Of a stretch of DNA of 64,000 bases, positions 955-50,576 are shown piece after piece. The DNA is taken from positions 12,567-76,566 of the forward strand of contig JAPKZJ010000071.1 of the NCBI GenBank assembly GCA_026393855.1, read 5' to 3'. Position 1 is the stretch's first letter. Each line of letters begins with the position of its first letter. The notes under the pieces are model-generated. The model saw nothing but the letters and a program-made list of their open reading frames with translations, ran no database searches and was not told the DNA's origin. Position numbers and translations under genes: made by a program. This DNA is from Candidatus Aminicenantes bacterium. Lineage in GTDB: Bacteria > Acidobacteriota > Aminicenantia > Aminicenantales > UBA4085.

Positions 955-1293
955 CATCTCTCGATTTCGGGGAAGGTAAAGCGGTCCGGAGTGTCGGCCA
1001 ACGGCGAAATCGCGAGGGCCTAGCCTTTTTCCACCTCTCTCCGAGGGTAGCCAACCCTCGCGGGGACTGTCGCAACGACGTCCCGACAAGGACTGCGAAG
1101 CGCTGCAGCCGCCGGAGGATGTTTGAGCATGCATCCATCATGGGGAACGCGATGAAGTGGGTGGGCAGGTGGATTCGAGTGAATAAACGTGCGGAGTTCC
1201 GGAGGCGCCGAGGAGATCGGTGGGAAAAGGCGTTAAAGGCCCGAAGCCGCCGGGACGACGCTCCGGACCGCTCCCCCCGAAATCGGGAGATGG
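955..1293 (+). repeat. MITE-like intergenic repeat, copy A (rearranged module order)
   Basis: 5' end CATCTCTCGATTTCGGGGAAGG and 3' end CCCGAAATCGGGAGATG form an inverted pair. Contains the modules GGCCAACGGCGAAATCGCGAGGG, CCTCGCGGGGACTGTCGCAACGACGTCCC, GGACTGCGAAGCGCTG, TTTGAGCATG and GTGCGGAGTTCCGGAGGCGCCGAGGAG, which are shared with five other loci in the window. Confidence 0.6.
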
Positions 1294-1360
1294 GCCTTTT
1301 TTCATCCCGGCCCGGCTTGTGGTATCATCATCGACCGATTCGGAGAAAGGACTGAAGGAC

Positions 1361-3520
1361 GTGCAAATCGCGGAACGATTGGTCAAGGAATTCAACGCCG
1401 GCGCCGGCCAGATCCAGGCCACCCTGGCGCTTCTCGACGAGGGGGCGACCGTCCCCTTCATCGCCCGCTACCGCAAGGAGCGAACGGGCAACCTGGACGA
1501 GACGAAGCTCCGCGACATCGCCCATCGCTATGCCTACTACAAGGAGCTCGAGGCCCGCAAGGAAACGATCCTGGCCTCGATCCGCGAGCAGGGCAAGCTC
1601 ACGCCCGAGCTCGAGGCCCGGATCGGCGAAACGGCCGACAAGACCGAGCTCGAGGATCTCTACCTCCCCTTCAAGCCCAAGCGAACCACCCGGGCCTCCA
1701 AGGCCCGCGAAGCCGGACTGGAGCCGCTGGCCCGCTGGCTGGCCGACCTGTCCGAGCCCGAGGCGGACCTCAACGCCGAAGCCGAGAAATATCTCAACCC
1801 CGAGAAGGGCCTGGAAACGGCCGAGGCCGCCCTGGCCGGCGCCTGCGACATCCTGGCCGAGGAATGGTCGGATGATGCCGACGCCCGCAAAGAGCTGCGA
1901 ACGCTAGCCGCTGAGGAAGGCATCCTGGTCTCGGCTGTTCGCAAAGGTTTCGCCGACAAAAAGACCAAATACGAGATGTATCGCGACTACAGGGAGAAAG
2001 TCTCCACCTTGGCTTCGCACAGAGTCTTGGCCATGATGCGGGGAGAGCGGGAGAAGGTTCTGGCCCTCAAGCTCGACCTGCCTCAGGAGAAAGCCGTCCG
2101 TGCTCTTGTCTATCGCTTTGTCCGCCACCCGCACGCCGCCTCCGCGCCCCGCCTGGTCGAGACCGCGATCGACGCTTTGGGCCGCCTCCTGGCGCCCGCC
2201 GTCGAGACTGAAGTCCGGCAGGGGCTGATCGAGAAGGCCGAGAAGGAAGCCTTTCAGGTCTTCGGGGCCAACCTCAAAGACCTGCTCCTCTCCCCGCCGG
2301 CCGGCCGCCAGCCCGCGTTGGGTGTGGACCCCGGATTCCGCACGGGCTGCAAGCTGGCCGTGGTGGACGCGACCGGCAAGTTCCTCGAGAACGCCGCCAT
2401 CTATCCCAACGAGCCCCGCAACGATACCGACGGGGCCAAGCTGACCCTGCTGAAAATGATCGCCGAATACGCCATCGCCTATATCGCCGTCGGCAACGGC
2501 ACCGCCGGGCGCGAGACCGTCCAGTTCATCCGCGAATCGCTGGACGAGCTGCCGGCGGGCCGAAGGCCGGCCGTCGTCGTGGTCAATGAGGCTGGGGCCA
2601 GCGTGTACAGCGCCTCCGAAGCGGCGGTGCGGGAATTCCCCAGGCTCGACATCACCATCCGGGGGGCCATCTCCATCGCCCGCCGGCTGCAGGACCCTCT
2701 GGCTGAGATGGTCAAGATCGAGCCCCGCTCGATCGGCGTCGGGCAATACCAGCACGACGTCGAGCAGACCGGTCTCAAGACCGCTCTCGACGAAGTCGTG
2801 GAAAGCTGCGTCAATTCGGTCGGCGTCGACCTCAATCTGGCTTCGGAGGAGCTGCTCCGCCACGTCTCGGGGCTGAATAAGGCGACAGCAGAAGCTGTTG
2901 TCCGGCGCCGCAACGAGAGAGGCCCTTACGCCGCGCGGGCCGAGCTGATGGAGGTCAAGGGGCTGGGCGAGAAGACCTTCGAGCAGGCGGCAGGGTTCCT
3001 GCGCATCCCGGGCGCCGCCAACCCCTTGGACGGCTCGGCCGTCCATCCCGAGCGCTACGGCTTGGTCGAACGGATGGCCGAGTCCCTGTCCGCCTCCGTC
3101 GGCGACCTGATCGGCAACACGGCCCTGCTGCGCAAGATTTCCCCCAAATCCTTCGTAACCGAGGACGCCGGCCTGCCGACCATCGTCGACATCGTGCGCG
3201 AGCTGGAAAAGCCCGGCCGCGATCCCCGGGCGGCTTTCAACTACGCCTCGTTCCCCGAGGGCGTCAAGGACATCAAGGATCTGACTGAAGGGATGATCCT
3301 GGAAGGGGTCGTCTCCAACGTAGCCAACTTCGGCGCCTTCGTCGACATCGGCGTCCACCAGGACGGGTTGGTCCATGTCTCCGAGCTGGCCGAGAAGTTC
3401 GTCCGGGACCCCCGCCAGGCCGTCAAGGTCGGCCAGGTGGTCAAGGTCAAGGTTCTGTCGGTCGATCTGGTCTTGAAAAGAATCTCGCTGTCGCTCAAGC
3501 AGGCTGCGGCGTCGAAGTAA
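1361..3520 (+). CDS. tex: Transcription accessory protein Tex (YqgF/RuvC-like, HhH, S1 domains)
   Basis: IARYRKERTGNLDE motif near the N-terminus; C-terminal S1 domain (GMILEGVVSNVANFGAFVDIGVHQDGLVHVSEL). A GTG at 1361 is preceded by GGAGAAAGGA. The ORF-track start at 1220 lies inside repeat copy A and is unlikely to be the real start. Confidence 0.85.
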   Translation: MQIAERLVKEFNAGAGQIQATLALLDEGATVPFIARYRKERTGNLDETKLRDIAHRYAYYKELEARKETILASIREQGKLTPELEARIGETADKTELEDLYLPFKPKRTTRASKAREAGLEPLARWLADLSEPEADLNAEAEKYLNPEKGLETAEAALAGACDILAEEWSDDADARKELRTLAAEEGILVSAVRKGFADKKTKYEMYRDYREKVSTLASHRVLAMMRGEREKVLALKLDLPQEKAVRALVYRFVRHPHAASAPRLVETAIDALGRLLAPAVETEVRQGLIEKAEKEAFQVFGANLKDLLLSPPAGRQPALGVDPGFRTGCKLAVVDATGKFLENAAIYPNEPRNDTDGAKLTLLKMIAEYAIAYIAVGNGTAGRETVQFIRESLDELPAGRRPAVVVVNEAGASVYSASEAAVREFPRLDITIRGAISIARRLQDPLAEMVKIEPRSIGVGQYQHDVEQTGLKTALDEVVESCVNSVGVDLNLASEELLRHVSGLNKATAEAVVRRRNERGPYAARAELMEVKGLGEKTFEQAAGFLRIPGAANPLDGSAVHPERYGLVERMAESLSASVGDLIGNTALLRKISPKSFVTEDAGLPTIVDIVRELEKPGRDPRAAFNYASFPEGVKDIKDLTEGMILEGVVSNVANFGAFVDIGVHQDGLVHVSELAEKFVRDPRQAVKVGQVVKVKVLSVDLVLKRISLSLKQAAASK

Positions 3521-7963: not shown

Positions 7964-8019
7964 GCCGTTTCGGGTTTTGCTATTATACTATACCCTCGAT
8001 CGGAACGATCGGGGCCGAA

Positions 8020-9135
8020 ATGCTGAAAGCGCTGAATGTCCTCCTGATCGGGGCGGCCGCCCGCAAGGCCGGCAAGACCGCCTTTTCCTGCCGGGTCATC
8101 CGCAGTCAGGCCGCCCGCCGCGAAGTCGTCGGCGTCAAGATCACACCGGTCCACGGCCCGGACGAGCCCTGCCCCCGGCCCGACGGCGGATGCGGCGAAT
8201 GCCGGGACTTCCCGGGGCGGTTCCGCATCCATGAGGAACGGCGAGCCTCGCCGGCTTCCGATACCGGCCGGATGCTTCTGGCAGGAGCCCGCAAGGCCTA
8301 TTGGCTGCAAACCCGGCGGGAGCACTTGGAGGAAGCCATGGCCGCCCTCTGGGCCCGGATTCCCGCGGGCGCCTGTATCGTGGCCGAGGGCAATTCAGCC
8401 CGGCGCGCCCTTGAACCCGGACTGTTCGTCCTGCTTCGGGAGCGGAACAATCCCGAGATGAAGGAATCCTTCCGGGAGCTGCTTCCAATGGCCCATCGGG
8501 TCGGGCTGTTCGACGGAACGGAATGGGATTTTCCGCCCGAGGACTGCCGATTCTTCGACGGCGGCTGGATGATCCGCCCACTGGCCTCGGCCGTCATCCT
8601 GGCCGGGGGCGACAGCCGCCGCATGGGACAGGACAAGGCCCTGCTCGAGATCGACGGCCGCCCCCTCATCGCGTTCATCGCCGGACGGCTGGCGGAGTTT
8701 TTCGACGAGATCGTCGTTGGAGCCAACCGGCCCGCCGACTATGCTTTCCTTGGCCGTCCAGTCATCCCCGACCGCGAGGCGGGGCTGGGCCCGCTGATGG
8801 GGATCGCCTCGTGCCTGGACCGAATCACGAACGACCTGGCCTTCGTCACGGCCTGCGACATCCCGTCGATCGACCTGCGGTTCGTCGCCTCGATGCTGGA
8901 ACAGGCCGAGGGTTATGACTGGGTCTTGCCGCAAGCCGGGCCCGAAACCTATGAACCGCTGTTCGCCGTCTATCGGAAGACGGTAGTCGCACCGGCCCTG
9001 GCCGTCCTGGCTGGCGGCGGACGCCGGATCGTCGAGCTTCTCGATCGGGTCCGGGTCCGCAGGTTGGCCCTGCCCGACTCGACCCGCATCCGCAACATCA
9101 ACACCCTCGACGATTACCGGGCCTTGAAAAAATAA
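8020..9135 (+). CDS. mobA: Molybdenum cofactor guanylyltransferase MobA with N-terminal MobB-like domain
   Basis: C-terminal half: LAGGDSRRMGQDKALLEIDGRPLI (MobA nucleotide-binding motif). N-terminal half: P-loop-like AARKAGKT and IVAEGN, resembling MobB GKT and LVEGFK. Lies divergent to the Mo-dependent fdhA. Confidence 0.7.
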   Translation: MLKALNVLLIGAAARKAGKTAFSCRVIRSQAARREVVGVKITPVHGPDEPCPRPDGGCGECRDFPGRFRIHEERRASPASDTGRMLLAGARKAYWLQTRREHLEEAMAALWARIPAGACIVAEGNSARRALEPGLFVLLRERNNPEMKESFRELLPMAHRVGLFDGTEWDFPPEDCRFFDGGWMIRPLASAVILAGGDSRRMGQDKALLEIDGRPLIAFIAGRLAEFFDEIVVGANRPADYAFLGRPVIPDREAGLGPLMGIASCLDRITNDLAFVTACDIPSIDLRFVASMLEQAEGYDWVLPQAGPETYEPLFAVYRKTVVAPALAVLAGGGRRIVELLDRVRVRRLALPDSTRIRNINTLDDYRALKK

Positions 9136-9144
9136 AAAGGAATC

Positions 9145-9429
9145 TCTTCCAATCTGTGCGGGTTGGTGAGGCGGCACGGTGTTTGGCCAACGGCGAAACC
9201 GCGCGGGTTTAGACTTTTTTGCGAGCCTCTTCGAGGGCACCCAACGGGCGCCGAGGGATGTTTGAGCACGTGATAATCATGGAGAATGAGACGGAGTGGG
9301 TGATCGTGCAGATTGGAGAGATCGAAGATGCGGAGTTCCGCAGGCGCCGAGAAGAGTAGCGCAAAAAAGGCGTGAAAAACCCGCGCCGCCGGGTCAAATA
9401 CCGTGACGCAGGCCGAACAGATTGGAAGA
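9145..9429 (+). repeat. MITE-like intergenic repeat, copy B (short variant)
   Basis: Ends TCTTCCAATCTGT ... ACAGATTGGAAGA form a perfect 13-bp inverted pair. Modules present: GGCCAACGGCGAAACCGCGCGGG, TTTGAGCACG, GGAGTGGGTGATC, ATGCGGAGTTCCGCAGGCGCCGAG and GCGCAAAAAAGGCGTGAAAAACCCGCGCCGCCGGG. Confidence 0.55.
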
Positions 9430-9440
9430 AAACCGCAAAA

Positions 9441-9490
9441 AAGAAGCCCTACCCCGGCCTCCCTCGCGGAGGCCTCGGCCGGGATAGGGC
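9441..9490 (-). terminator. Intrinsic terminator downstream of blaR1
   Basis: On the minus strand: CCCTATCCCGGCCGAGGCCTCCGCGAGGGAGGCCGGGGTAGGG hairpin followed by CTTCTTTTTT, immediately after the blaR1 stop. Confidence 0.5.
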
Positions 9491-9511
9491 GGGACGGCGT
9501 CGGTCGATCGC

Positions 9512-10996
9512 TTACTTCTCGGACTTGGCCTTCATCTCGGCCTGGACTTTCTGGGCCAGCTCCTTGAGGGCGGCCTGCTTCTCGAGGACCATCTGCAGGT
9601 TCCTCTTAAGCTCGTCGCGCTTCTCCGCGATCTCGGTCTTGTCGAGCTCGGCCCGGATGGCGGTCTCCTTCTCCTGCAGGGATTCCAGCTTGCTTTTCAG
9701 TTCGTCGAGCGACGGCAAAGCGGTCGGGGAAAGAGACGTCTTGGAGGCGGACTGCATCTCGGCCGCTTTCATCTTGAGCATCTGCAGCTCCTTCTCCAAC
9801 CCGGCTTTCGTCTCCGGATCCTGGGTCTTGGCCAGCTCGGCTTCGATCATTTCGGCCTTCTGCTTCAGCTTCATCATCTGCTCGGAAAGAGGGGCCGACG
9901 ACTTCAGATGGATGCCTTGGGCCTCCAGTTTGGCGCCCAGCTCCTGGCGCTTCTGGGCCAGCTTTTCGAGCTTGGCCTTGATCTCGCCGCGCCGGGACTC
10001 GTCCTCGGTCGCTTGGTAGGCTCCCTTGAGCTCGATCATGGTCTGATCGATCTTGCGAAGCTCGTCGGCGGCCTGAGCGGCCTTTTCCTGAGACATCTTC
10101 TCCATCTTAGCTTGGTCGGACTTGTCCTGTCCGGCGGGCGCCGCCGAGGCGGCGAACCGGGGGACGGCGAAAAGGGCGACCAGAGCCAGGGCCGCGGGCA
10201 CGGCCAGCAGACACTTCCAGCGAGAAACACCGGCGGACCGGTTTCGGGACATCATCGTCATTCTCCTTTTAATTAGAGACTGCTTGAAGCTGTTCCCCAC
10301 TCCAAACAATCGGGCGCCCACGTGCTGCTCGAACACGAGCCGCCGGTACCCGCTGCCGCCGAAGCCCTGCGCAATGACTCCGGCGTCGGCCAGATACTCG
10401 TGGGTCTCTTGTAGCGATTTCTTGAACGGCCAGACGAGAGGGTTGAACCAGACGAGGACGACGGCCAGCTCCATCAATAAGAGGTCCAGGGAGTGAAGCT
10501 GGCGGATATGGATGCGTTCGTGGGCCAGGATCCGGCGGAGATCGCCGGGCTCGAGCCCGCGCTCGTTGAGGAAAACGAAGCCGAGGAAGGAGAAAGGCGA
10601 GAACTCGGCGCCAACGGCCACGATTCGGGTTCCGTTCCGGCGGCGGATGCCGCTTTTGCGGATCACGGAGGCCAGACGGACCAGGTGGGCGCCGAAGCGG
10701 ATGAGGAAGGCCAGCGCCCCGGCCGCATAGACGACGGCCAGAACGTCGAGGAGCCCGAGGCCCCGGGCGGGCAGCGGGCCGGCCGGGCTGGGCATCCAAT
10801 CCAGGATGGCCGAAGCCGTCCGGAACGGCGATGCCACAGGGAAGGCGGGGATGAGAAACGAGAGGGCCAGAGCCGCGATGAGGAAGCCCCGGTTCAGGTG
10901 AAAATGGGTCTCGTTGCGGAGGAAGACGACGTAGAGGGCATAGAAGAGAGACAGCCCGAGGGCGGCCTTGGCGGCATAAACCAGGAGCGGGATCAT
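9512..10996 (-). CDS. blaR1: BlaR1/MecR1-family M56 metallopeptidase signal transducer with C-terminal extracytoplasmic coiled-coil domain
   Basis: HExxH motif ILAHERIHIRQLH in a 4-TM N-terminal domain typical of Peptidase_M56. After a fifth hydrophobic segment, the last ~220 aa are a K/E-rich coiled coil rather than a penicillin-binding sensor domain. The start overlaps the blaI stop. Confidence 0.8.
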   Translation of the reverse strand: MIPLLVYAAKAALGLSLFYALYVVFLRNETHFHLNRGFLIAALALSFLIPAFPVASPFRTASAILDWMPSPAGPLPARGLGLLDVLAVVYAAGALAFLIRFGAHLVRLASVIRKSGIRRRNGTRIVAVGAEFSPFSFLGFVFLNERGLEPGDLRRILAHERIHIRQLHSLDLLLMELAVVLVWFNPLVWPFKKSLQETHEYLADAGVIAQGFGGSGYRRLVFEQHVGARLFGVGNSFKQSLIKRRMTMMSRNRSAGVSRWKCLLAVPAALALVALFAVPRFAASAAPAGQDKSDQAKMEKMSQEKAAQAADELRKIDQTMIELKGAYQATEDESRRGEIKAKLEKLAQKRQELGAKLEAQGIHLKSSAPLSEQMMKLKQKAEMIEAELAKTQDPETKAGLEKELQMLKMKAAEMQSASKTSLSPTALPSLDELKSKLESLQEKETAIRAELDKTEIAEKRDELKRNLQMVLEKQAALKELAQKVQAEMKAKSEK

Positions 10997-11376
10997 TCCT
11001 TCCCTCCCCTCTGCCGCTCGATCTCCTCGTCCAGGAGCCGGCGGACGCTCTCGAGCTCGTCCAGGCTCATATCCCGGCCGCCGGCGAAGAAGGACACCAT
11101 TTCGGGAAAGGAATCGCCGAAGAAGCGGCGGACGAAGGATCGGACGAACTTCTTCTTGTACTCGTCGCGGGCGACGAGCGGGAAATATTCGTGGGTTTTC
11201 CCATAAGCCTTGTGGCCGACCACCTTTTTCTTTTCCAGGATGCGAAGGATGGTCGAAACGGTGTTGTAGGCGGGCTTCGGCTCGGGCAGCTTTTCAATGA
11301 CGTCTTTGACGAAGCCCTTCCCCAGGCCCCAGAGGACCTGCATGATCTCTTCTTCCGCCCTGGTGAGTTCTTTCAT
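10993..11376 (-). CDS. blaI: BlaI/MecI/CopY-family transcriptional repressor
   Basis: Winged-helix N-terminus LTRAEEEIMQVLWGLGKGFVKDVIEKL...YNTVSTILRILEKKKVV, 127 aa, immediately upstream of and overlapping the M56 gene. Confidence 0.85.
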   Translation of the reverse strand: MKELTRAEEEIMQVLWGLGKGFVKDVIEKLPEPKPAYNTVSTILRILEKKKVVGHKAYGKTHEYFPLVARDEYKKKFVRSFVRRFFGDSFPEMVSFFAGGRDMSLDELESVRRLLDEEIERQRGGKE

Positions 11377-11500
11377 TGCACCCCCAATATAAAACTAATC
11401 TTTTAGTTTGTCAACTATTATTTTCGTTTCATAACTAAACGCACTAATGATACGATCAAACTAAAGCTGCTGTTACAGATTAAAAACCAGCGAGATTTTA
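11377..11500 (-). promoter_or_regulatory. AT-rich blaI promoter/operator region with repeated AAACTAA/TTAGTTT half-sites
   Basis: Palindrome AAACTAA-tctt-TTAGTTT at 11392-11409; further AACTAAA / CAAACTAAAG / ACTAAT copies at 11434-11467. This is an AT-rich island in an otherwise ~68% GC region. Confidence 0.4.
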
Positions 11501-11910
11501 TTGATTCCGGGAAACATTGGCGGATCGGAGTACCGGCCAACGGCGAAACCGCGCGGGTTCCGGCTTTTTACGCCTCTCCGCGAGGGCAGCCAGTCCTCGC
11601 TGGAACTATCGAAGCGACGTTCCGACGAGGGCTGTTTGAGCACGCGACAATCTACCGGAATCGCAACGGAGTGGATGGTCACCGTAACCGGGAGATCTCG
11701 AATGCGGAGTTCCGCCCTCGCGGGGACTGTCGAAGCGACGTCCCTACGAGGACTGCGAAGCGCTGGAGGCGCCGAGGAGAGAAGCGCAAAAAAGCGTGAA
11801 AAACCCGACGCCGCCCTCGCGACGACGGGCGAAGCGCCGGTCGTTACGAGGACTACCAAAGCGTTGCCGGGCCGGATTCCCTGCCGCACAGCCCGGAGAT
11901 GGGAGAAGGA
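11500..11910 (+). repeat. MITE-like intergenic repeat, copy C (long variant with internal duplication of the hairpin module)
   Basis: Modules GGCCAACGGCGAAACCGCGCGGGTTCCGGCTTTTTACGCCTCTCCGCGAGGG, TTTGAGCACG and GGAGTGGATGGTC. The 75-nt core at 11702-11775 is identical to copies D and E. Confidence 0.6.
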
Positions 11911-11927
11911 CCGCTTGAATCGCCCGG

Positions 11928-14057
11928 TCAGCGCGGCAGGTAATACTTGGTGACGTATTCCTGAACCATGCGCCGGGTGTGGTAGCGGGGCGTCAGGCCG
12001 GAGACGGCGTTGCGGATCATCTTGATCCAGCGGCGCGGCAAGCCGGAAGCATCCCGCTCGTAGAAGGCCGGGACGACCTCTTCGGACAGCACCCGGAAAA
12101 GGTTCTCGGCATCCACCCGGTCCTGCTCCCCGACGTCGGCCGGGTGGGAATCGGGGCCGATGGCGAAGCCATTGGTCCCGTCGTAGGCCTCCCGCCACCA
12201 GCCGTCCATGATGCTCAAGTTGAGGCAGCCGTGCACTCCGCATTTCTGGCCCGACGTGCCAGAGGCCTCCAAGGGCCGGCGGGGATTGTTCAGCCAGACG
12301 TCGCAGCCCGAGATCATGCGCCGGGCCACCTGGACGTCGTAGTTCTCGATGAAGACGAGCGAGCCTTTGAGCGCAGTGTGCTTGCTCAAGTGGATGATCT
12401 GCTGGATGAACCGCTTGCCGTCGTCGTCCCGGGGATGTGCCTTGCCGGCGAAGACGAACTGGACGGGCCGTTGGGCGTCCTTGGCCAGCTCGACGATGGC
12501 TTCGAAATTCCGGAAGACAAGCGGCGCCCGCTTGTAGGTGGCGAAGCGGCGGGCGAAGCCGACCGTCAGGGCGTCGGGGTCGAGCAGGGCGTCATAGGTG
12601 ATGAAGTCGCCCTGGCCGACGATGCGGCCCTGAATGAGCAGGCGCTTGCGGCAGTACTCGATCAGCTTGCGCCGCAGCTCGTAGCGGAAGGCCCACAGCT
12701 CCTCGTCCGAGACGAAGGCCGGGTCCTCGACCTTGGCCCAGAAGGCCGAATCATCGACCCTGTCGGCCCAATCCCCCTCGGCCTTGCGCGACCAGAACCG
12801 GTAGGTCGTCCCGTTGAGCCAGGAAGGCACATGGACGCCGTTGGTGATATGGCCGATGGGCACCTCGGCTTCGGTCCGCTCGGGCCACAGCCCATGCCAC
12901 ATAGCCCGACTGACGCGGCCGTGGAGCTCGCTGACGCCGTTGGCCGCCCGCGAGCCCTTGAGGGCCAGGACCGTCATGCAGAACAGTTCGCACTCGTCGG
13001 CCGGGTGGACGCGGCCCAAGCCCAGAAGCCTCTCCCGCTCGTGGGGAAACGATTTGAGGTAGCGCGAGGCCGCATACTCGACCAGGTCGGCGCTGAATCG
13101 GTCGTGGCCGGCCTCGACGGGGGTGTGGGTCGTGAAGACGCACTCGGATCGAACCTCATCCCAGGCCTTCTCGAAGGTCAGGCCGGCCGCGGTCTTTTCG
13201 CGCAGAAGCTCCAGGGTCAGGAAGGCGGCGTGGCCCTCGTTCATATGGAAGACCGAGGGGTCGAGGCCCAGGGCGCGCAAAAGCCGCACGCCCCCGACAC
13301 CCAGCAGCAGCTCTTGCATGATCCGGGTCGTGTGGTCGCCGCCGTAGACGCGGCGAGTCAGGTCCCGATGGGAGGGCTCGTTCTCGGGCAGGTCGGTGTC
13401 GAGCAGATAGACGCAGACGCGGCCGATGTTGGCCCGCCAGGCCCGGAAGCGGACTTGGACGGCGGCGATCGGGACGGATCCGACGACCGGCTCTCCCCTG
13501 TCGTCGAGCACCGGCTCCAACGGCAGATTCCGCGGCTGGAGGGTGGGGTAGGATTCGATCTGCCAGTTCTGGTGGTCGACCGACTGCATGAAGTAGCCTT
13601 CGCGGTAGAACAGGCCGACCCCGACAAAGCCCAGGCCCAGATCGCTGGCCGATTTGGCGTGGTCGGCCGACAGGATGCCCAGTCCGCCGGCGGTGATGGG
13701 CAGCGACTCGTGGAAGCCGAACTCGGCGCTGAAATAGGCCACCGGATGGTCGAAAAGATCGGGGGCGTTCTCGCGGCCCCAGGTCCGCTCTTCCTTTAAA
13801 TAGGCGTCGAAGGCGGCGAGCACGGCTTTGGCCTTGGCGGCAAAGGAGGGGTCCATCAGGCGGACGCGCAATTCATAGGCCGAGACTTCGTGCAAAACGG
13901 CCACGGGATTGTGGTAGAGATTCTCCCAGGCCCGCGGCGAAAGGTCTTTGAACAGCCCCTGGGCCGGGGGGTTCCAGGACCACCAAAGATTGCGGGCCAG
14001 GCGGTTGAGTCCGGCCGTCAGGGCTTGGATCTGGGCATTTCCGTTCGTCGGTTTCAA
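11928..14057 (-). CDS. glgP: Alpha-glucan (glycogen/maltodextrin) phosphorylase, GT35 family
   Basis: N-terminal LARNLWWSWNP motif characteristic of the short alpha-glucan phosphorylase clade; 709 aa; ...GQKCGVHGCLNLSIMDGWW... near the C-terminus. Confidence 0.85.
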   Translation of the reverse strand: MKPTNGNAQIQALTAGLNRLARNLWWSWNPPAQGLFKDLSPRAWENLYHNPVAVLHEVSAYELRVRLMDPSFAAKAKAVLAAFDAYLKEERTWGRENAPDLFDHPVAYFSAEFGFHESLPITAGGLGILSADHAKSASDLGLGFVGVGLFYREGYFMQSVDHQNWQIESYPTLQPRNLPLEPVLDDRGEPVVGSVPIAAVQVRFRAWRANIGRVCVYLLDTDLPENEPSHRDLTRRVYGGDHTTRIMQELLLGVGGVRLLRALGLDPSVFHMNEGHAAFLTLELLREKTAAGLTFEKAWDEVRSECVFTTHTPVEAGHDRFSADLVEYAASRYLKSFPHERERLLGLGRVHPADECELFCMTVLALKGSRAANGVSELHGRVSRAMWHGLWPERTEAEVPIGHITNGVHVPSWLNGTTYRFWSRKAEGDWADRVDDSAFWAKVEDPAFVSDEELWAFRYELRRKLIEYCRKRLLIQGRIVGQGDFITYDALLDPDALTVGFARRFATYKRAPLVFRNFEAIVELAKDAQRPVQFVFAGKAHPRDDDGKRFIQQIIHLSKHTALKGSLVFIENYDVQVARRMISGCDVWLNNPRRPLEASGTSGQKCGVHGCLNLSIMDGWWREAYDGTNGFAIGPDSHPADVGEQDRVDAENLFRVLSEEVVPAFYERDASGLPRRWIKMIRNAVSGLTPRYHTRRMVQEYVTKYYLPR

Positions 14058-14312
14058 GAAGACCTCGCTTCGGGCGGTCCGGGCCGCGAAAATTCCCGGT
14101 CATGATAGTCCCATCAGAGGGCGCGATCAAGGGGGCTCCCCCTCACGGTAGCCTTATCCGATTGACTTGGATTTTATTTTCCAAGCAGCTTTATGACCAA
14201 GAACTCGTCCCAACACTGACGAGGGAGAGTAACGGGCTATCATGAAGGGCGCATCTGATCCCAATATTTCCGGCCAAGGCAACAATTCGGGTATGATGAG
14301 CGTATTTATCAG

Positions 14313-16508: not shown

Positions 16509-16514
16509 AAGGAG

Positions 16515-16853
16515 CATCTCCCATCTCCGGGAAAAGCGGCCAGGGGGTATCGTCCCGGCGGCATCGGCCTCTGCTCGCCTTTTCCCACAGCTCTCTTCGG
16601 CGCCTCCAGCGCTTCGCAGTCCTCGTAGGGACGTCGCTTCGACAGTCCCCGCGAGGGCGGAACTCCGCATTCCAGATCAACCGGTCTTGGTGACCTCCCA
16701 CTCCGTTTCTTTTTCGATTTTTCTTTCCTAGCTCAAACAGCCCTCGGCGGCCGATGGCTTCCCTCGGAGAGCTATGGAAAAAGGCGCCGGCCTCGCGATT
16801 TCGCCGTTGGCCGATACCCCTATCCGCATTCCTTTCCCGGAGATGAGAGATGA
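16515..16853 (-). repeat. MITE-like intergenic repeat, copy D (inverted orientation)
   Basis: Ends CATCTCCCATCTCCGGGAAAAG (16515-16536) and CCTTTCCCGGAGATGAGAGATG (16832-16853) form a near-perfect 22-bp inverted pair. All shared modules are present in reverse complement, including the identical 75-nt core. Confidence 0.65.
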
Positions 16854-16960
16854 ATTTAATAAAAAAGCCCCCCCTCTCAGGTCCCACGGCCCGGTTGTCT
16901 CCCGGCCTTCGGATGTGATAGGTTGAACGGCGGAAACCCATCACTGTCCGGGAGAGAGCC

Positions 16961-37784: not shown

Positions 37785-37799
37785 ATATGTAAACTCTGC

Positions 37800-37856
37800 C
37801 AATTCCGGGGAGAACAGAGCGGTTCGGCGTTTCGGCCAACGGCGAAACCGCGCGGA
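37800..37856 (+). repeat. Truncated copy (copy F) of the MITE-like repeat: 5' terminal region only
   Basis: ATTCCGGGGAGAACAGAGCGGTTCGGCGTTTCGGCCAACGGCGAAACCGCGCGG matches the 5' terminus and first module, then stops at the ABC-2 permease stop codon. Confidence 0.45.
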
Positions 37857-37859
37857 CGA

Positions 37860-38987
37860 TCACTCCAACCGTTTCTTGAAGCGGGCGATGCTCAAGGCCA
37901 GCACGACCGCGCCGAAGACGGCCATGGCCGCGGCCTCGTCCCACAGCTCCGCCCAACCCGATCCCTTGAGGAAGATGCCGCGGATGACCGAGAAGAAATA
38001 CTTGATCGGGACGACCGTGGTCACGGCCCGGAAGAAGCCGGGCATGGTCTCGATGGGAAAGACGAAGTTCGACAGCAGGATCATCGGGATCATGAAGAAG
38101 ACAGCCGTCAGCATGGCTTGTTGCTGGTTGCGGGAGATGGTCGAGATAAACAGGCCCAGGCTTAGGGTCGTCAGCATGAAGATGAGGCTCATGCCGCCAA
38201 GAAGCAGACCGCTCCCCCGGAGCGGGATATGGAATCCGAACACCACCAGGCTGGTCACCAAGACGACTTCAACGACTCCGATGAACAAGAACGGCAGGAG
38301 CTTGCCCAGGATGATCTGACCGGGACGGATCGGGGTCACAATGAGCTGCTCCAGGGTGCCCGTCTCTTTCTCCCGGACAATCCCCATCGAGCTCAGCATC
38401 ATGGTCATGATCATCAGAATCAATCCCAGGACCCCGGGCACGAGGAAGTTGCGGCTTTTCAAGTCGGGATTGTAGAAGACTCGGACCTCCGGCGTGATCA
38501 GCACCGGCTGCAGACGGGCACCGCGCAGGCGGACGAAAGTCTCCACAAGCAGGGATTGGGAGAATCGGGACGTGATCATGGCGGCGTAGTTGAGTCCGAT
38601 GGTCGCCGATTGGCTCTCCGTGCCGTCGGCGATGATCTGGGCTACGGCCCCCCGACCAGCCAGGAGCCGCTCGCCGAAGCCGCGGGGGATGATCATGGCC
38701 ATGGCGGCATCGCCGCGGTCGATCCGGACATCGATCTGATCGGGCCTTTCAACGTCTTCCAGCCGCGAGAAATAGCCGGAGTGGAAGAACGCGTCCAGAT
38801 AGGAGCGGCTCTGCGGCGTCCGGTCCTGGTCGCAGACGACCGAGGGGATGTCCCGCACGTCCATGTTCACGGCGTAACCCAGCAGCAGCAATTGGAGGAT
38901 AGGCGAAATAAAGAGGATAGGCGCCATTCGCTTGTCGCGGCGGAGCTGGATGAACTCCTTCTTCAGCACGGCCAGGATGGCTTTCAT
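37860..38987 (-). CDS. ABC-2 type transporter permease (YbhR/YbhS-like)
   Basis: N-terminal KKEFIQLRRDKR motif, large periplasmic loop, then 5 TM segments; 375 aa. The start overlaps the upstream gene's stop. Confidence 0.8.
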   Translation of the reverse strand: MKAILAVLKKEFIQLRRDKRMAPILFISPILQLLLLGYAVNMDVRDIPSVVCDQDRTPQSRSYLDAFFHSGYFSRLEDVERPDQIDVRIDRGDAAMAMIIPRGFGERLLAGRGAVAQIIADGTESQSATIGLNYAAMITSRFSQSLLVETFVRLRGARLQPVLITPEVRVFYNPDLKSRNFLVPGVLGLILMIMTMMLSSMGIVREKETGTLEQLIVTPIRPGQIILGKLLPFLFIGVVEVVLVTSLVVFGFHIPLRGSGLLLGGMSLIFMLTTLSLGLFISTISRNQQQAMLTAVFFMIPMILLSNFVFPIETMPGFFRAVTTVVPIKYFFSVIRGIFLKGSGWAELWDEAAAMAVFGAVVLALSIARFKKRLE

Positions 38988-41112: not shown

Positions 41113-41126
41113 CCCCTTGCCTCCGC

Positions 41127-45100: not shown

Positions 45101-45156
45101 AGTTCTATGATCGTGCGTGAGGGCGCTCTTGTCAAGTCAGGATTTCAAAGAAACGG

Positions 45157-45843: not shown

Positions 45844-45960
45844 GCGCAAATATCCTTTCCGGAAGGTCAAAGCGTCATTGTATCAGGTCGCTCCTCTCTT
45901 GCACATCCACTCACGTTCGATTATCATGAGGTTAATGATCGAAGAGTTGGAGGGTGCCCT

Positions 45961-47031: not shown

Positions 47032-47040
47032 GTTTCGGCC

Positions 47041-48078
47041 TCAACCGGTCAGGCGGCCGGTGTAGGCATAATCCATGGCCATGGCAGTTGCCAGCGAGAC
47101 GATGTCGAGCAGCTTTTCTTCGGCCCGCCGGGGACGATAATGCAGCCCCAAGACGCGAGCCCGGGACTCCAGCTTTCGCAGGATCGCCTCCCCCGACACC
47201 TCGGAGAGATTGGACCAGCGCACCACCCTACCGATGAGATGGTCGTGATGTTTTCGGAAAAGGTCCGCGGCAGGCCACAGGACTTCCCCTCGTAGAGGGG
47301 GGAAGACTTCGCGCAGCCGGTCATCGACGTAGCCGCGGGCGGCGCGGCGCAGTCGCTCAGCCCTTTTGCCGTAATGATCGGCCAGGGGATAAGTCATCCG
47401 CTCGATCGGTTTGAAGGTCCGGCCGCGATCAGCGAAGGGAGCCTCGTCCCGGATGCTCCGCATCAGGCCGTCGAGAAAGACGAGCTTGCGGTAAGCAGGC
47501 CAGAACCGGTAGCGCCGCCGCCACTCCCCCCGCGGCGTCAGCCAGACTGCAAAGGTTTCCGCGAAGTCCTCGTCGGGATGCTTCTGGGCGTATGTCCGGC
47601 CGTAGGGATAGGCGTCGATATGGCGGACGAATTCGCGGCTCGTCCGATCGGGGCGGAAGATGTCACGGTAAGGCCGGTGGAACACCCCGAAGTTCTCGAC
47701 CCAGCCGGGCCGCTTCCATAGCCGGTAAGCGTAGTTGACGGCGTGGCCGGCCTCGTGTCGGAGGAACATCATGATGCCGGGGCCGTCCTCCAGTTCCCCG
47801 TTCTGCTCCTCCTCGATCCGAGATAACCGGGGATCGGCCAGATAGAACGGGGCGCCGATAACCGGCGATCGGTCGGGACAGCCCCATCCGTCGGTCAGAT
47901 AGACTTGAGGGCGGAACGGAATCTTCTTGGCCTGAAGCTCGCGGTAGAGGCGCTGAACGGGCTTATCCAAGGGCGAACCTTCGACCCGCAGGCCGAGATC
48001 GGAGATCCGGGTGTTGAACAGCTCGCAACGGACCGTTTCCCAGCCCTGGACGAGCGATAGGACCGTTTTATCCGTCAC
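47041..48078 (-). CDS. Putative zinc-dependent metallopeptidase (HExxH; Peptidase_Mx-like)
   Basis: Single zincin motif MFLRHEAGHAVNYAY with a downstream E (DEDFAETFAVW); 345 aa; no signal peptide. Confidence 0.6.
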   Translation of the reverse strand: MTDKTVLSLVQGWETVRCELFNTRISDLGLRVEGSPLDKPVQRLYRELQAKKIPFRPQVYLTDGWGCPDRSPVIGAPFYLADPRLSRIEEEQNGELEDGPGIMMFLRHEAGHAVNYAYRLWKRPGWVENFGVFHRPYRDIFRPDRTSREFVRHIDAYPYGRTYAQKHPDEDFAETFAVWLTPRGEWRRRYRFWPAYRKLVFLDGLMRSIRDEAPFADRGRTFKPIERMTYPLADHYGKRAERLRRAARGYVDDRLREVFPPLRGEVLWPAADLFRKHHDHLIGRVVRWSNLSEVSGEAILRKLESRARVLGLHYRPRRAEEKLLDIVSLATAMAMDYAYTGRLTG

Positions 48079-48223
48079 TCCGCTTGCCTCCTCCGCCTTG
48101 GGCGGCGAGGGCCATTATATGGGAACCCGGACGATATGTCACTCCCGGCCCCCGTCCGGCCTTCGACCTTGTCTAAGTCCTCCCCCTGTGCTACTTATGG
48201 AACCGTTGGAAGGAGGAAGCCCC

Positions 48224-50236
48224 ATGACCAGCTTGAACCGCCGCGAATTCCTGACCCATATGACGGCCGGCGCGGTCGCCTTGGCGGCGCCCGGGCTGCC
48301 GGCCAAGGCCTCGGCCGGTGTTGCGGCCGATTTATCGGCCCCGGTTCCCTCGGGTCTGTCCGAACCCAAGTTCCGTCCGCTCCCCCTGGGCTCGATCCGG
48401 GCCCTCGGTTGGCTCGAACGCCAATTGCGCATCCAGGCCGACGGCTTGAGCGGCCATCTGGACGAATTCTGGCCCGATGTCCAACGCAGCAAATGGTTCG
48501 GGGGCGAGGCCGAAGGCTGGGAGCGCGCCCCTTATTGGATGGACGGCTTCATCCCTCTGGCCTGGAGCCTGGACGATCCAGGACTCAAAGCCAAAGCCTC
48601 GCGCCATATCGAGGAGATCGTCGCCGGCCAGCGGGCCGATGGCTGGTTCGCTCCCTACCCGGAGGACGCCGCGGTCAAGAAATACGACCTCTGGGCCATC
48701 CTCCTGGCCAATAAGATGCTGGCCCAGTATCATGACGCCACCGGCGACGACAAGGTCTTGCGGGCCGTCGAACGCAGCCTGCGGGCGATGGCGGCCGGGC
48801 TGGACCGCACGCCGCTATACGATTGGGGCCGCTACCGCTGGTTCGAAGGCCTTGTGCCGATCTTCCACGTCTACGAGCGGACTGGGGAGAAATGGCTGCT
48901 CGACTTGGGCCGCAAGCTGCGGGCCCAAGGCTTCGACTACGAAGCCTTCTACCGGGGCGAAGATGTGACCGTGCCGACTCCGCGCCGCGGCTTGTGGAAG
49001 TGGGCCAAGCACGTCGTCAACACGGGGATGGCCCCCAAAGCCTCGGCCCTGTCCTGGCGGCTCGGACCCGATCAGGGCGACCCGGCTTTCCCAGCCCGGA
49101 TGATCGCTCTGCTCGACCGCTACCACGGACAGGTCACGGGCATGTTCACCGGCGACGAGTGCCTGGCCGGCAAGAACCCTCTCCAAGGGACCGAGCTCTG
49201 CGCCGTGGTCGAGTTCATGTACTCACTTGAAGTCCTGCTCTCCGTGCTCGGCGATCCTGCCTTCGGGGACCGTCTGGAGCAAGTCGCCTTCAACGCCCTG
49301 CCGGCCGCCTTCACGCCGGACATGTGGGCTCACCAGTACGACCAGCAGGTCAATCAAATCCAGGCCACGATCAACCCCGACCACCTCTGGACCACCAACG
49401 GACCCGAGTCCAACATCTTCGGCCTGGAGCCGAACTTCGGCTGCTGCACGGCCAACATGCACCAGGGCTGGCCCAAGTTCGCGGCGCACCTCTGGATGAG
49501 GACGCCCGACGAAGGCCTGGCCGCCGTCGCCTACGCTCCCAGCCGGGCCCGCTTCCTCTCGCGCGGCGTCCCCGTGACGGCGGAGCTTCGGACCGACTAC
49601 CCGTTCCGGGAAACACTAACCGTGTCCGTGACGGCGGAACGGCCGGCCAAGTTCCCTCTCCTTCTCCGCGTCCCGGCCTGGGCTCAGGCCCCCACCCTGC
49701 GGGTCGCGGGCGGCGCAGCGACGCCGCTCCGGCCGGGAACGTTTCACCGGCTCGATCGCGAATGGGCCGGAACGGTAGAAATCGAGCTGCGTTTCCCGAT
49801 GCGGGCCGCAACAACAATCCGGTATAACGAGTCCGTCGCTGTCGAGCGGGGACCGCTGGTATACGCGCTCAAGCTGGGCGAAGAACGGACCCGGGTCAAC
49901 GCGGACAAGCCCCAGCGCGAACTGCCCCACGGCGATTTTGAGGTCCGGCCGACGACGCCATGGAACTACGGCCTCGTGGTGGACGACAAGGACGCGGCGG
50001 TCGGGTTGACGTTCGAGGAAAAGCCCGTCGGCGAGCGGCCCTTCTCACCCCAAGGGGCGGGCATGAGCGCCCGGGTCAAAGGGCGCCGGCTCAAATCCTG
50101 GCGCCTTGACCACGGCTGGGCGGCGGAGTATCCGCCGGGAATTCACGAATCCGCAGAGCCTCTGGAAGAACTGGAGCTTCTCCCCTACGGCTGCACCAAT
50201 ATCCGGCTGACCGAATTTCCGCGCTTAAAAAAATAG
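48224..50236 (+). CDS. Glycoside hydrolase family 127 (beta-L-arabinofuranosidase-like, DUF1680), Tat-exported
   Basis: ATG after AGGAGGA; Tat signal MTSLNRREFLTHMTAGAVALAAP. GH127 blocks including the ELCAVVEFMYSLE and NFGCCTANMHQGWPKF cysteine-containing regions. Confidence 0.75.
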   Translation: MTSLNRREFLTHMTAGAVALAAPGLPAKASAGVAADLSAPVPSGLSEPKFRPLPLGSIRALGWLERQLRIQADGLSGHLDEFWPDVQRSKWFGGEAEGWERAPYWMDGFIPLAWSLDDPGLKAKASRHIEEIVAGQRADGWFAPYPEDAAVKKYDLWAILLANKMLAQYHDATGDDKVLRAVERSLRAMAAGLDRTPLYDWGRYRWFEGLVPIFHVYERTGEKWLLDLGRKLRAQGFDYEAFYRGEDVTVPTPRRGLWKWAKHVVNTGMAPKASALSWRLGPDQGDPAFPARMIALLDRYHGQVTGMFTGDECLAGKNPLQGTELCAVVEFMYSLEVLLSVLGDPAFGDRLEQVAFNALPAAFTPDMWAHQYDQQVNQIQATINPDHLWTTNGPESNIFGLEPNFGCCTANMHQGWPKFAAHLWMRTPDEGLAAVAYAPSRARFLSRGVPVTAELRTDYPFRETLTVSVTAERPAKFPLLLRVPAWAQAPTLRVAGGAATPLRPGTFHRLDREWAGTVEIELRFPMRAATTIRYNESVAVERGPLVYALKLGEERTRVNADKPQRELPHGDFEVRPTTPWNYGLVVDDKDAAVGLTFEEKPVGERPFSPQGAGMSARVKGRRLKSWRLDHGWAAEYPPGIHESAEPLEELELLPYGCTNIRLTEFPRLKK

Positions 50237-50239
50237 GTT

Positions 50240-50576
50240 CTTCTCCCGTCTCCAGGAAACATCAGCGGTTCGGGGTGTCGGCCGACGGCGAAACCGCGCG
50301 GGTTCCGGCTTTTTACGCCTCTCCGCGAGGGGACCCAACGGGCGCCGAGGGCTGTTTGAGCACGCAACCGTTTAACGGAATCGAATGGGAGTGGGTGGTC
50401 TCCATGATCGGGCGATCTCGAATGCGGAGTTCCGCCCTCGCGGGGACTGTCGAAGCGACGTCCCTACGAGGACTGCGAAGCGCTGGAGGCGCCGAGCGGA
50501 TTAGCGTAAAAAGGAGTGGTGAACCCGCGCCGCCGGGACAACACCCCGGACCGCGTTTCCCGGAGTTGGGAGAACA
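50240..50576 (+). repeat. MITE-like intergenic repeat, copy E
   Basis: Ends TTCTCCCGTCTCCAGGAAAC / GTTTCCCGGAGTTGGGAGAA form an inverted pair. All modules are present, including the 75-nt core at 50422-50496 that is identical to copies C and D. Confidence 0.65.

Follow-up and report, generated by a model that had tools for sequence, protein, structure and literature searches.

An intergenic repeat family of Aminicenantes is very probably a non-autonomous MITE with ISL3-type ends that lands in T-rich terminator tails

Classical bacterial MITEs, such as QMITE2 of Coxiella, Correia/NEMIS, RUP and ERIC, are shorter than 500 bp and are bounded by terminal inverted repeats, with direct repeats beside them that become less distinct as a copy ages; their insertion sites are AT-rich and intergenic, and very stable stem-loops are predicted for their transcripts (PMC10969869). 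The repeats described here share with these elements the size, the inverted repeats, the fading flanking repeats, the AT-rich intergenic sites and the stem-loops. They differ in their hosts, which are metagenome-assembled genomes (MAGs) labelled Aminicenantes or Acidobacteriota, in a target duplication that is 8 bp long rather than TA, and in that the parent insertion sequence (IS) family was identified. This family is ISL3, for which an 8-bp target duplication is the established description. A further difference from the classical elements lies in the interior, where covariation, invariant motifs, a strand-specific fold advantage and hairpins nested at fixed points were observed.

Class C group II introns and the attC sites of integrons resemble the repeats by function only. 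The introns home just downstream of intrinsic terminators, in "safe" sites at gene ends; unlike the present elements, they belong to the retroelements, carrying a ribozyme and a reverse transcriptase but neither inverted repeats nor a target duplication, and no ribozyme family was matched by Rfam in the window or in copy F. The attC sites (57-141 bp) are substrates of a tyrosine integrase, whose recombination duplicates no target, and the likeness is that of imperfect palindromes with structure conserved over sequence and a strand-specific fold; no component of an integron was noticed in the neighborhood of the copies.

The repeats in the window, which is the whole stretch of 64,000 nucleotides that was analyzed, are very probably copies of a ~292-bp non-autonomous MITE with ISL3-type ends, landing in the T-rich tails of terminators. 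The family is new and the kind of element is well known; a literature search found nothing specific on Aminicenantes MITEs or on ISL3 MITEs at terminators. It represents a previously undescribed, abundant MITE family of an uncultured lineage, tied to an identifiable IS family, and its copies should be masked or annotated during assembly, binning and annotation and not be taken for sRNA genes.

The repeat family and its copies

The window holds one repeat family, present as five full copies and one 5' fragment (Table 1). The copies were linked pairwise by a repeat search (up to 290 nt at 77% and 185 nt at 86%), and the 22-mer GGCCAACGGCGAAACCGCGCGG was found six times at up to three mismatches, compared to none in 100 shuffles. 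The first-pass annotation had assigned the six loci to a single family, and this was borne out by a MAFFT alignment in which indels were allowed. The ordered motifs that it had listed were all present, being invariant or nearly so over 36 copies from several genomes, and every window copy was indeed intergenic. The nhmmer search that it had proposed for further copies returned ~60 full ones outside the window, distributed over 70 genome loci of six MAGs labelled Aminicenantes or Acidobacteriota; the exact 22-mer occurs in at least 35 copies in one MAG labelled Aminicenantes. Plasmid and phage collections searched with copy B (blastn, distant mode) gave no match.

The base form is 291-294 bp long, with variants of up to ~480 bp, and its ends conform to GGWTCWTC...GAWGAACC (termini GGWTCWTCKCCCRWYTCCGGG on the left and CCCGGARWTGGGMGATGAACC on the right). 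The inverted repeats span ~22 bp, or up to ~40 bp if imperfect pairing is accepted, and 15 to 21 of the 22 terminal positions are complementary in 36 copies, these being the copies kept at a cut-off of at least 15. The inverted pairs reported earlier for the ends are therefore real: the terminal helix is 93.9% paired in these copies, and its variable positions covary, with 11 of 12 pairs changed on both sides. Copy boundaries were refined from the family termini, which, like the 8-bp length of the duplication, are fixed by the IS copies described below. Hairpin modules of 44-59 nt are nested at fixed points of the interior and may be helix-tip expansions passed down within subfamilies.

Table 1. 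Copies of the repeat family in the window and the hairpin modules nested in them
Feature	Position	Strand	Description
Copy A	951-1296	+	346 bp, base element plus one hairpin module
Copy A, nested hairpin module	1053-1108	+	Insertion point i, after GCCAA; module HMM E=2.7e-16
Copy B	9139-9434	+	296 bp, base form without module; convergent genes on either side
Copy C	11491-11912	+	422 bp, three modules, degenerate 5' inverted repeat
Copy C, nested hairpin modules	11592-11635, 11713-11769, 11812-11869	+	Insertion points i, ii and iii
Copy D	16511-16856	-	346 bp, one module (16603-16659)
Copy E	37789-37857	+	Truncated 5' fragment, left inverted repeat up to and including the GGCCAACGGCGAAACCGCGCGG motif
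Copy F	50236-50579	+	344 bp, one module (50433-50489); convergent genes on either side

Copy A, with the ends GAATCATC...GATGGGCC, has an MFS transporter gene on one side and tex on the other. The 3' side of copy B adjoins an A-run and a hairpin, which together make up the terminator of gene 9512-10996 (minus strand), and that of copy F meets the T-tract of a terminator-like hairpin at 50593-50614 (minus strand). Copy C is antisense to both of its neighboring genes, which are on the minus strand, and copy D is antisense to the two plus-strand genes around it, its 3' end lying 3 nt past the stop codon of gene 14313-16508. Copy E was matched by nhmmer at positions 7-79 (E=1.9e-11) and breaks off beside the stop codon of the minus-strand gene 37860-38987. 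Truncated 5' remnants resembling copy E were seen elsewhere, at about position 4630 of locus L004 and at 5499 of L065.

No conserved ORF or reading frame was found on either strand. A small protein was considered for the 33-codon ORF of copy B (starting ATGTTTGAGCAC) and rejected: the ATG is missing in 16 of 36 copies, many copies stop after 7 codons, and the frame is broken by indels. Coding on the minus strand was likewise dismissed, as the long open frames are three different frames over the same conserved DNA.

Target sites and ISL3 elements with the same ends

The major data for movement of the repeats were obtained from their flanks, which point to an 8-bp direct duplication of an A/T-rich target. 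Flanking 8-mers of the same copy were identical at 4.94 of 8 positions, compared to 2.85 between copies and 1.71 in the inverted comparison (permutation p<5e-5), and they matched at 7 or more positions in 11 of 34 copies. Exact duplications were observed, for example, at loci L001 (CAAAAAAA) and L020 (AAAAGAAT). Within the window, the best preserved pair is that of copy F (AAAAAATA at 50228-50235 and AAAAAAAA at 50580-50587, 7/8), followed by copy B (AATAAAAA at 9131-9138 and GCAAAAAA at 9435-9442, 5/8) and copy D (TTTTATTA and TTTTACAG on the minus strand, 5/8); the pair of copy A has decayed (TGAATAAT at 943-950 versus TTTTTTCA at 1297-1304, 2/8). The AT-rich flanks remarked on in the first-pass annotation are a property of the family, since the 8-mers adjoining the ends are 82-84% A+T against a background of 35%. 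When the flanks of 36 copies were classified as 9-mers, 13 were T/T, 11 were A/A and 1 was A/T.

Mobility is also indicated by an empty site for copy B. At the syntenic locus L045, the orthologous intergenic region measures 87 nt, compared to 376 nt here; this single site constitutes the presence/absence evidence. Copy C, by contrast with copy B, is represented at L045 by an internally deleted derivative of ~140-170 bp at the same site (nhmmer match 3358-3496), with the same orientation and the same mismatched pair of end types, although the genes flanking it in that genome are only ~80% identical. Copy C is an old insertion common to both. The recent proliferation suggested from the density of copies was not upheld by these data or by the window itself, where identity among copies is only ~73-89% and where, among the four duplications checked by eye, those of A (2/8) and D (5/8) have decayed. 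The family is old and not recently expanded.

As had been proposed earlier, a full-length IS with the same ends plus a transposase was looked for, and such elements were identified on metagenome contigs and a Cupriavidus plasmid. The element at L186 (638-1972) encodes a 411-aa protein that matches DDE_Tnp_ISL3 (PF01610, E=3.4e-60) as well as PF13542 (E=3.9e-16) and PF14690 (E=2.9e-10), the ISL3 HTH and zinc ribbon domains. Seven further copies are near full length (1309-1334 bp), the ORF being frame-disrupted in two of them; they share these ends and are flanked by an 8-bp duplication. The full-length elements range from 1.31 to 1.34 kb. Their duplications include GTAATCAT at L137 (8/8), T8/T8 at L136 and a 7/8 match at L190; L186 is an exception, as its flanks are inverted rather than direct. 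The plasmid element, on pRK1-1 of Cupriavidus basilensis, is annotated as an "ISL3 family transposase" element (WP_116318649.1); it has the same ends, with T-runs of at least 8 on both sides, and sits directly after a hairpin. Several of the ISL3 copies likewise sit behind terminator hairpins, in the T-tract. The right inverted repeat of the ISL3 elements encodes the C terminus of the transposase (..AFPGIGR*).

The closest match to the MITE is the subgroup with GGTTCTTC... ends (the pRK1-1 element, L186, L137 and L136), in which ~22-25 nt of the left end and ~30 nt of the right end agree. When L186 was compared to the MITE copy at L064, the left ends agreed at 24 of 25 positions by eye. The 8-bp duplication, the A/T-rich target and the T-tract behind terminator hairpins are also common to both. 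The MITE differs in having no transposase gene, in being 292 bp rather than 1.31-1.34 kb long, and in its dissimilar core of ~210 bp. The repeats are therefore more than the termini of a known IS, as ~25-40 nt per end are common and the ~210-nt core is unrelated; this core was absent from all 120 metagenome loci retrieved by the end pattern. The absence of a transposase from the window, claimed earlier, held for relatives of the ISL3 transposase (tblastn, ISL3 only), and none was detected by tblastn in the ~0.5 Mb sampled from MITE-bearing MAGs (L001-L070). The ISL3 elements are thus known from metagenome contigs and the Cupriavidus plasmid, not from the MITE-bearing genomes sampled. When the window and L001-L070 were searched for inexact matches to the ends, nothing was returned beyond the ends of elements, three truncated remnants of the 5' part and chance matches within genes. 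The original proposal of a MITE-like element that is non-autonomous, prefers AT-rich targets and draws its transposase from elsewhere is supported by the target duplications, the empty site and the ISL3 ends.

The T-tract that directly follows a terminator hairpin is often the target. For 13 of 34 copies, a hairpin in the flank fell below the 5th percentile of the control windows (binomial p=9e-6). A strong upstream hairpin was present at 38% of insertion sites compared to 6-10% of other T6+ runs in the sampled loci, which is suggestive of the terminator hairpin plus T-tract, beyond the T-tract alone, being the target, the comparison being a rough one with two flanks per insertion site and a biased sample of loci. 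The gene context was convergent for 25 copies, tandem for 21 (13 sense and 8 antisense) and divergent for 5, and the flanking genes are housekeeping genes unrelated to one another. It is proposed that an ISL3 DDE transposase acting in trans would bind both ends of the MITE and move it into an A/T-rich 8-bp target, which would be duplicated. In a genome of ~65% G+C, such a target would usually be the U-tract DNA of an intrinsic terminator. Upstream of the insertion, the hairpin and one copy of the T-tract would survive, and the site would therefore be largely harmless. The bias towards the 3' ends of genes would be explained by such harmless U-tracts being the usual targets. Landing in the T-tract behind intrinsic terminators, by both the ISL3 subgroup and the MITEs, would amount to a "safe-site" strategy that leaves the terminator intact.

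The folded interior and alternative explanations

The interior of ~210 bp is predicted to fold together with the ends into a long rod. In the consensus fold, 96.8% of cells are paired, a value attained by none of 500 shuffles, in which 87.2% were paired; slid partners gave 40-52%. Changes on both sides were found for 32 of 58 pairs, and for 16 of 46 outside the terminal helix; the covariation score, counted per cell and not per event, was 0.304 compared to 0.136 for shuffles and 0.04-0.09 for slid partners. Invariant purine-rich motifs lie between the covarying helices. Folding is more favorable for the plus strand in every one of the 36 copies (mean of -151.8 versus -133.6 kcal/mol for the minus strand), and the stability z-score is about -8 on both strands. 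G-U cells exceed A-C cells by ~81 to 28 in our own tally, with three pairs supplying most of the excess. Pairing is lost in copy C, and some copies (L020 and L045) have a replaced or deleted apical domain. The interior covariation, the invariant motifs and the plus-strand advantage are not accounted for by a plain DDE-transposase model alone.

These features could be read as those of a dispersed structured ncRNA gene on the plus strand, acting in trans or in cis, with the terminal pairing as its closing helix and the motifs as functional loops. The paired fraction, the two-sided changes, the invariant blocks between covarying helices, the uniform strand advantage and the G-U excess are all as expected for such an RNA. 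This reading was nevertheless deemed unlikely. Spread at the DNA level is shown by the duplicated targets, by the empty site and by ends of the IS type. The Rfam search proposed in the first-pass annotation, which had offered a structured RNA as an alternative, gave no match at the gathering score in the 64-kb window and only chance-level hits for copy F (E up to 10). No promoter or terminator conserved across copies was seen by eye in the alignment; consensus scans placed no promoter in the window copies and a single weak terminator-like match, at the 3' end of copy D. Orientation is not preferred, as tandem copies are sense in 13 cases and antisense in 8, and there is no conserved neighbor gene. 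The loss of pairing in the old copy C, the variable apical domain and the restriction of most of the G-U excess to three pairs also speak against it. What remains of the RNA alternative is the covariation and strand bias of the interior; an Rfam match, a promoter and a preferred orientation were not found. The internal T5-6 run was considered as a terminator tail and rejected, since it pairs with an A-run on the other arm. A role for the hairpins in the host, as extra terminators, insulators between convergent genes or stabilizers of mRNA 3' ends, would fit the enrichment between convergent genes (25 of 51), the placement right behind terminators and the very high stability on both strands. 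Comparable host roles have been proposed for ERIC and Correia elements. MITE transcripts are described as forming stable stem-loops able to affect expression (PMC10969869). The autonomous IS has the same site preference, however, and placement therefore follows target choice; in addition, a related genome lacks copy B without anything visible in its place, copy C is decaying, and a generic hairpin needs no sequence motifs conserved across genomes. Retention by the host was accordingly judged improbable. Still far less probable, to the point of being negligible, is a derivation from REP/REPIN-like or IS200/IS605 palindromes, which a Y1 (HUH) transposase would mobilize in single-stranded form. 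Such an origin would agree with the strand asymmetry and with the palindromic, rod-like fold, but elements of this type have neither target duplications nor terminal inverted repeats, and the 8-bp duplication and the inverted repeats shared with ISL3 contradict it.

It is possible, if somewhat doubtful, that the rod and its compensatory changes are without function and reflect correction of one arm by the other, through intrastrand template switching or mismatch repair of the extruded hairpin during replication, with subfamily structure inflating the covariation counts. Consistent with this, rods without strand bias are also predicted for unrelated MITE families that have these ends, covariation was counted per cell, and pairing is not lower as the duplication decays. 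Arm-to-arm correction should, however, erase bulges and wobbles, whereas asymmetric motifs persist (GGCCAACGGCGAAAYCGCG facing GCCGCCGGG), as do, across subfamilies, the U-G pairs of columns 86/254 and 92/250, and the pairing of copy C was lost. The invariant unpaired blocks imply purifying selection on sequence, beyond complementarity.

Within the preferred reading of an ISL3-type MITE, the rod may have been kept because lineages that were still transposing needed it, with the joining of the ends of a very short element, or a single-stranded DNA or RNA form, as candidate roles. We tentatively hypothesize, while regarding it as rather unlikely, that the rod and its purine-rich loops are a functional plus-strand RNA or folded single-stranded DNA that captures the ISL3 transposase or joins the ends. 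If this were true, the MITE would be propagated by structure in addition to inverted repeats, and the rod shape of ISL3-type MITEs would be mechanistically required. With the compensatory evolution of its interior, the family lends itself to testing whether foldback is required for very short transposons to move.

The relation of pairing to age was uninformative, because the homopolymer targets make duplication identity a noisy proxy: the fraction of pairs kept in the core gave a Spearman coefficient of 0.07 against it (n=18), and core pairing was 0.983 in "young" and 0.982 in "old" copies (n=15). The other MITE families with the same ends, of ~190 and ~325 nt, for which the rod without strand bias was likewise predicted, are bordered by A/T-rich 8-bp flanking repeats that match at 6-7 of 8 positions by eye.

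The MITE and its insertion sites

The six repeat loci of the window (copies A to F) were deduced to be a single family, as the first-pass annotation had proposed. This was supported by a repeat search that linked the loci as direct and as inverted repeats (matches reaching 290 nt at 77% and 185 nt at 86%) and by MAFFT alignment allowing indels. The 22-mer GGCCAACGGCGAAACCGCGCGG occurred six times in the window at no more than three mismatches and in none of 100 dinucleotide-preserving shuffles. All six copies lie between genes, again as previously stated, when genes are called with a home-made GC3/GC1/GC2 frame rule.

Copies of the repeat family in the window
Copy	Position	Strand	Remarks
A	951-1296	+	family termini
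B	9139-9434	+	family termini; base form
C	11491-11912	+	family termini
D	16511-16856	minus	family termini
E	37789-37857	+	5' fragment
F	50236-50579	+	family termini

Ten neighbor genes compared to Pfam (MFS transporter, Tex, MobA-like transferase, a BlaR1/BlaI pair, glycogen phosphorylase, a GH127 enzyme, and others) had no shared theme and included no transposase. Minus-strand ORFs of 577 and 229 aa (14154-16670) are antisense to the real plus-strand gene 14313-16508 and reach copy D. Shadow ORFs of this kind are typical in high-GC sequence, and because of them an ORF list could misplace copy D inside a gene.

The element is a mobile element at the DNA level, with ISL3-type ends, an 8-bp target duplication, and a preference for terminator tails. 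Its termini read GGWTCWTC...GAWGAACC, with 15 to 21 of the outer 22 positions of the two ends complementary. When the flanking 8-mers were compared as direct repeats, each copy's own flanks matched at 4.94 of 8 positions, versus 2.85 between copies and 1.71 in the inverted comparison; the own-flank sum was reached in none of 20,000 permutations, and 11 of 34 copies matched at 7 or more positions. Among 36 copies classified by 9-mers, 13 had T-rich and 11 had A-rich flanks on both sides, while one was A/T. Since the flanks match as direct repeats of the T/T or A/A class, they represent a duplicated target and do not extend the terminal stem. The suggested AT-rich target preference was borne out, the flanking 8-mers being 82 to 84% A+T versus 35% in the surrounding DNA.

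Many copies have duplicated the T-run of an intrinsic terminator, whose GC-rich hairpin stands immediately outside it, on the 5' side of T-run flanks and the 3' side of A-run flanks in the example copies. A flank hairpin was present in 13 of 34 copies at a strict energy threshold (binomial p=9e-6). Copy B adjoins the terminator of gene 9512-10996, and copy F adjoins a terminator-like hairpin (50593-50614). A strong terminator hairpin was found at 38% of insertion sites versus 6 to 10% of other T-runs, which in this rough comparison of weak design suggests that insertion sites are richer in such hairpins. For 51 copies with callable neighbors, the context was convergent in 25, tandem in 21 (13 sense, 8 antisense), and divergent in 5, and thus biased to gene 3' ends without a preferred orientation. 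Terminator tails may be targeted as the chief A/T-rich 8-mers of a GC-rich genome; a further reason would be that insertion there spares the hairpin and one copy of the T-tract.

The reading frame of the GH127-like gene 48011-50236 ends precisely at copy F, because its stop codon TAG (50234-50236) consists of the final two bases of the duplicated target and the first G of the element; the insertion may have altered the C terminus of the protein. On the other side of copy F, a 300-nt direct repeat of 73% identity (50694-50993 and 51853-52152) lies inside the adjacent minus-strand genes 50592-51665 and 51742-52797, which are probably tandem paralogues; the former had no Pfam match at E values up to 1e-5.

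ISL3 relatives

At least 120 metagenome loci matched the end pattern GGWTCWTCKCCCRWYTCCGGG, and the core of the window MITE was absent from all 120 matches listed. They do include full-length insertion sequences (IS) with the same terminal repeats plus a transposase, for which the first-pass annotation had recommended a search. Locus L186 encodes a 411-aa protein (638-1972) with DDE_Tnp_ISL3 (E=3.4e-60), HTH_Tnp_ISL3, and Zn_ribbon_ISL3 domains, and seven further copies among the matches listed are 1309 to 1334 bp, with proteins 51 to 72% identical. Their ends are GGTTCTTC[TG]CC... and ...TTCCCCGGAGTTGGGAGATGAACC. The right inverted repeat codes for the final residues and stop of the transposase (..AFPGIGR*), which accounts for the conserved CCCGGA center noticed previously. 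An exact 8-bp duplication, GTAATCAT, flanks the copy at L137, and T8/T8 that at L136; at least five IS copies sit in a T-tract immediately behind a terminator hairpin. The closest plasmid relative (61.6% identical) is carried by Cupriavidus basilensis pRK1-1 and is annotated as an "ISL3 family transposase" element. Its ends are the same, and it immediately follows the hairpin GCCCAGCAAACTGCTGGGC, with a T-run of at least 8 on each side.

By eye, the left 25 nt of the L186 IS match those of a MITE copy (L064) at all but one position. The likeness between MITE and IS stops about 25 to 40 nt in from each end. The window repeats were therefore assigned as an ISL3-type MITE, the ends and flanks being shared with full-length ISL3 elements, and the main reading of the first-pass annotation, a MITE-like element, is upheld by the ends, the duplication, and an empty site. 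Its statement that the window has no transposase holds for an ISL3 gene and for the ten Pfam-checked neighbors; no ISL3 gene was found in the window or in about 0.5 Mb from MITE-bearing metagenome-assembled genomes (MAGs). An ISL3 transposase would act in trans to mobilize the MITE. The L186 IS is flanked by inverted symmetry of about 28 nt (604-637 and 1973-2003; ATAATCCCCCCATCCCCCCCTTTAGAAA / TTTCTAAAGGGGGGTGGGGGGGATTAT) instead of a direct 8-bp duplication, and it may be nested in a palindromic hairpin or another foldback element.

Other metagenome contigs carry MITE families of about 190 nt (L093, L099, L132, L150, L163, L178) and 325 nt (L084, L179) with the same ISL3-type ends, A/T-rich 8-bp flanking repeats (6 to 7 of 8 by eye), and unrelated cores. 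A 2024 review (PMC10969869) describes prokaryotic MITEs as elements shorter than 500 bp that have inverted repeats and fading direct repeats, target AT-rich intergenic DNA, and give transcripts with stable stem-loops; the window MITE fits this general description. A literature search of incomplete coverage returned no account of this family, of MITEs in Aminicenantes, or of terminator-tail targeting by ISL3 elements. The repeats are a new family, with a structured interior, within a known kind of element.

Age and distribution

A locus of Acidobacteriota STD1_136 (L045) shows synteny with window 9510-16410, with about 80% identity. Downstream of the MobA-like gene, its intergenic region measures 87 nt and holds only a terminator hairpin, versus 376 nt in the window including copy B, and L045 thus provides the empty site that had been sought. 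At the copy C site, L045 has an internally deleted derivative of about 140 to 170 bp (nhmmer match 3358-3496). Since it shares the site, the orientation, and the mismatched ends of copy C (left GATTCC, right AGATGG), the copy C insertion was deduced to be older than the divergence of these genomes and to have decayed later. The window copies are mutually only about 73 to 89% alike; the family is old and not freshly expanded, contrary to the recent proliferation first suggested.

Beside copy C, an AT-rich block is kept in both genomes (window 11386-11476; L045 3250-3310), upstream of the minus-strand BlaI-like repressor gene 10993-11376 (Penicillinase_R) and the BlaR1-like gene 9512-10996. Within the block lies a sigma-70-type match of 11/12 (TTGACA, 17 nt, TATATT). 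The block is probably the promoter/operator of this operon and is not related to the adjoining MITE.

A scan of one genome per species for exact GGCCRACGGCGAAAYCGCGMGG gave 70 loci, of which 65 came from six MAGs, labeled in the records as Candidatus Aminicenantes MFD04716.bin.2.239 (about 33 loci), Acidobacteriota STD1_136 (20), Aminicenantes UBA4085 (5), two "Eubacteriales" bins (8), and one "Coriobacteriia" bin (1). An nhmmer profile of the five full window copies located about 60 full-length copies in these loci. The "Eubacteriales" and "Coriobacteriia" MAGs contain full copies, and those labels merit checking. Five loci from other phyla (L011, L013, L027, L028, L056; MAGs labeled Verrucomicrobiota, Thermoguttaceae, Gammaproteobacteria, and Bacteroidetes) have the exact 22-mer with no nhmmer hit and no element, and appear to be chance matches.

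Interior fold and nested modules

The base form, which lacks nested hairpin modules, is uniform in length (291 to 294 bp). The whole element is predicted to fold as a long rod (copy B, −132.7 kcal/mol, z=−7.7). The proposed covariation check, made by RNAalifold on 36 base-form copies, gave 58 consensus pairs, 32 with compensatory changes; 16 covarying pairs lie outside the terminal helix. Cells were paired in 96.8%, versus 87.2% in shuffles (0 of 500 reaching the observed value) and 40 to 52% with partners slid by 1 to 3 columns; the corresponding covariation scores were 0.304, 0.136, and 0.04 to 0.09. Between the helices, the blocks GGCCAACGGCGAAAYCGCGMGG, TGTTTGAGC, GAGTGGG, AGTT, AGGCGCCGA, and GCCGCCGGG are invariant across genomes.

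Three readings of the rod were considered. It may be required for mobilization, for example by bringing together the two ends of so short an element or by serving as a folded single strand. Alternatively, it may be a neutral outcome of arm-to-arm correction, although correction alone is hard to reconcile with the conserved bulges, the wobble pairs, and the invariant loops.

The remaining reading is a role at the RNA level. The plus strand (the element orientation), which is the counterpart of the IS transposase sense strand, is purine-rich (G 34%, A 24%, C 25.5%, T 16.6%) and gives a more stable predicted fold than the minus strand in each of the 36 copies (means of −151.8 versus −133.6 kcal/mol). 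G-U cells outnumber A-C cells (about 81 versus 28 by tally), the excess coming mostly from three pairs, and the terminal helix is unbiased (12 versus 11). The 190- and 325-nt families are also predicted rods but without this plus-strand advantage. For the dispersed structured RNA first offered as an alternative, Rfam gave no match to the element. A conserved ORF was absent from both strands. The decay of the old copy C argues against maintenance at the level of the host.

Hairpin modules of 44 to 59 nt, with their own covarying stems and in most cases an AAG loop, occur 27 times, always inside the element and in its orientation, at three recurring points as judged from the window copies and module sequence types. 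Some copies have a fourth expansion of about 83 nt plus a replaced apical domain: in L020 (76-158; also L010, L037, and L059; Acidobacteriota STD1_136), the insert, which has an 11-bp stem (CCATATGCCGT/ACGGCATATGG), lies in the 5' arm, and a short hairpin takes the place of the apical domain. The conserved apical motifs are therefore dispensable in some subfamilies, and the modules and expansions look like helix-tip expansions passed down within subfamilies.
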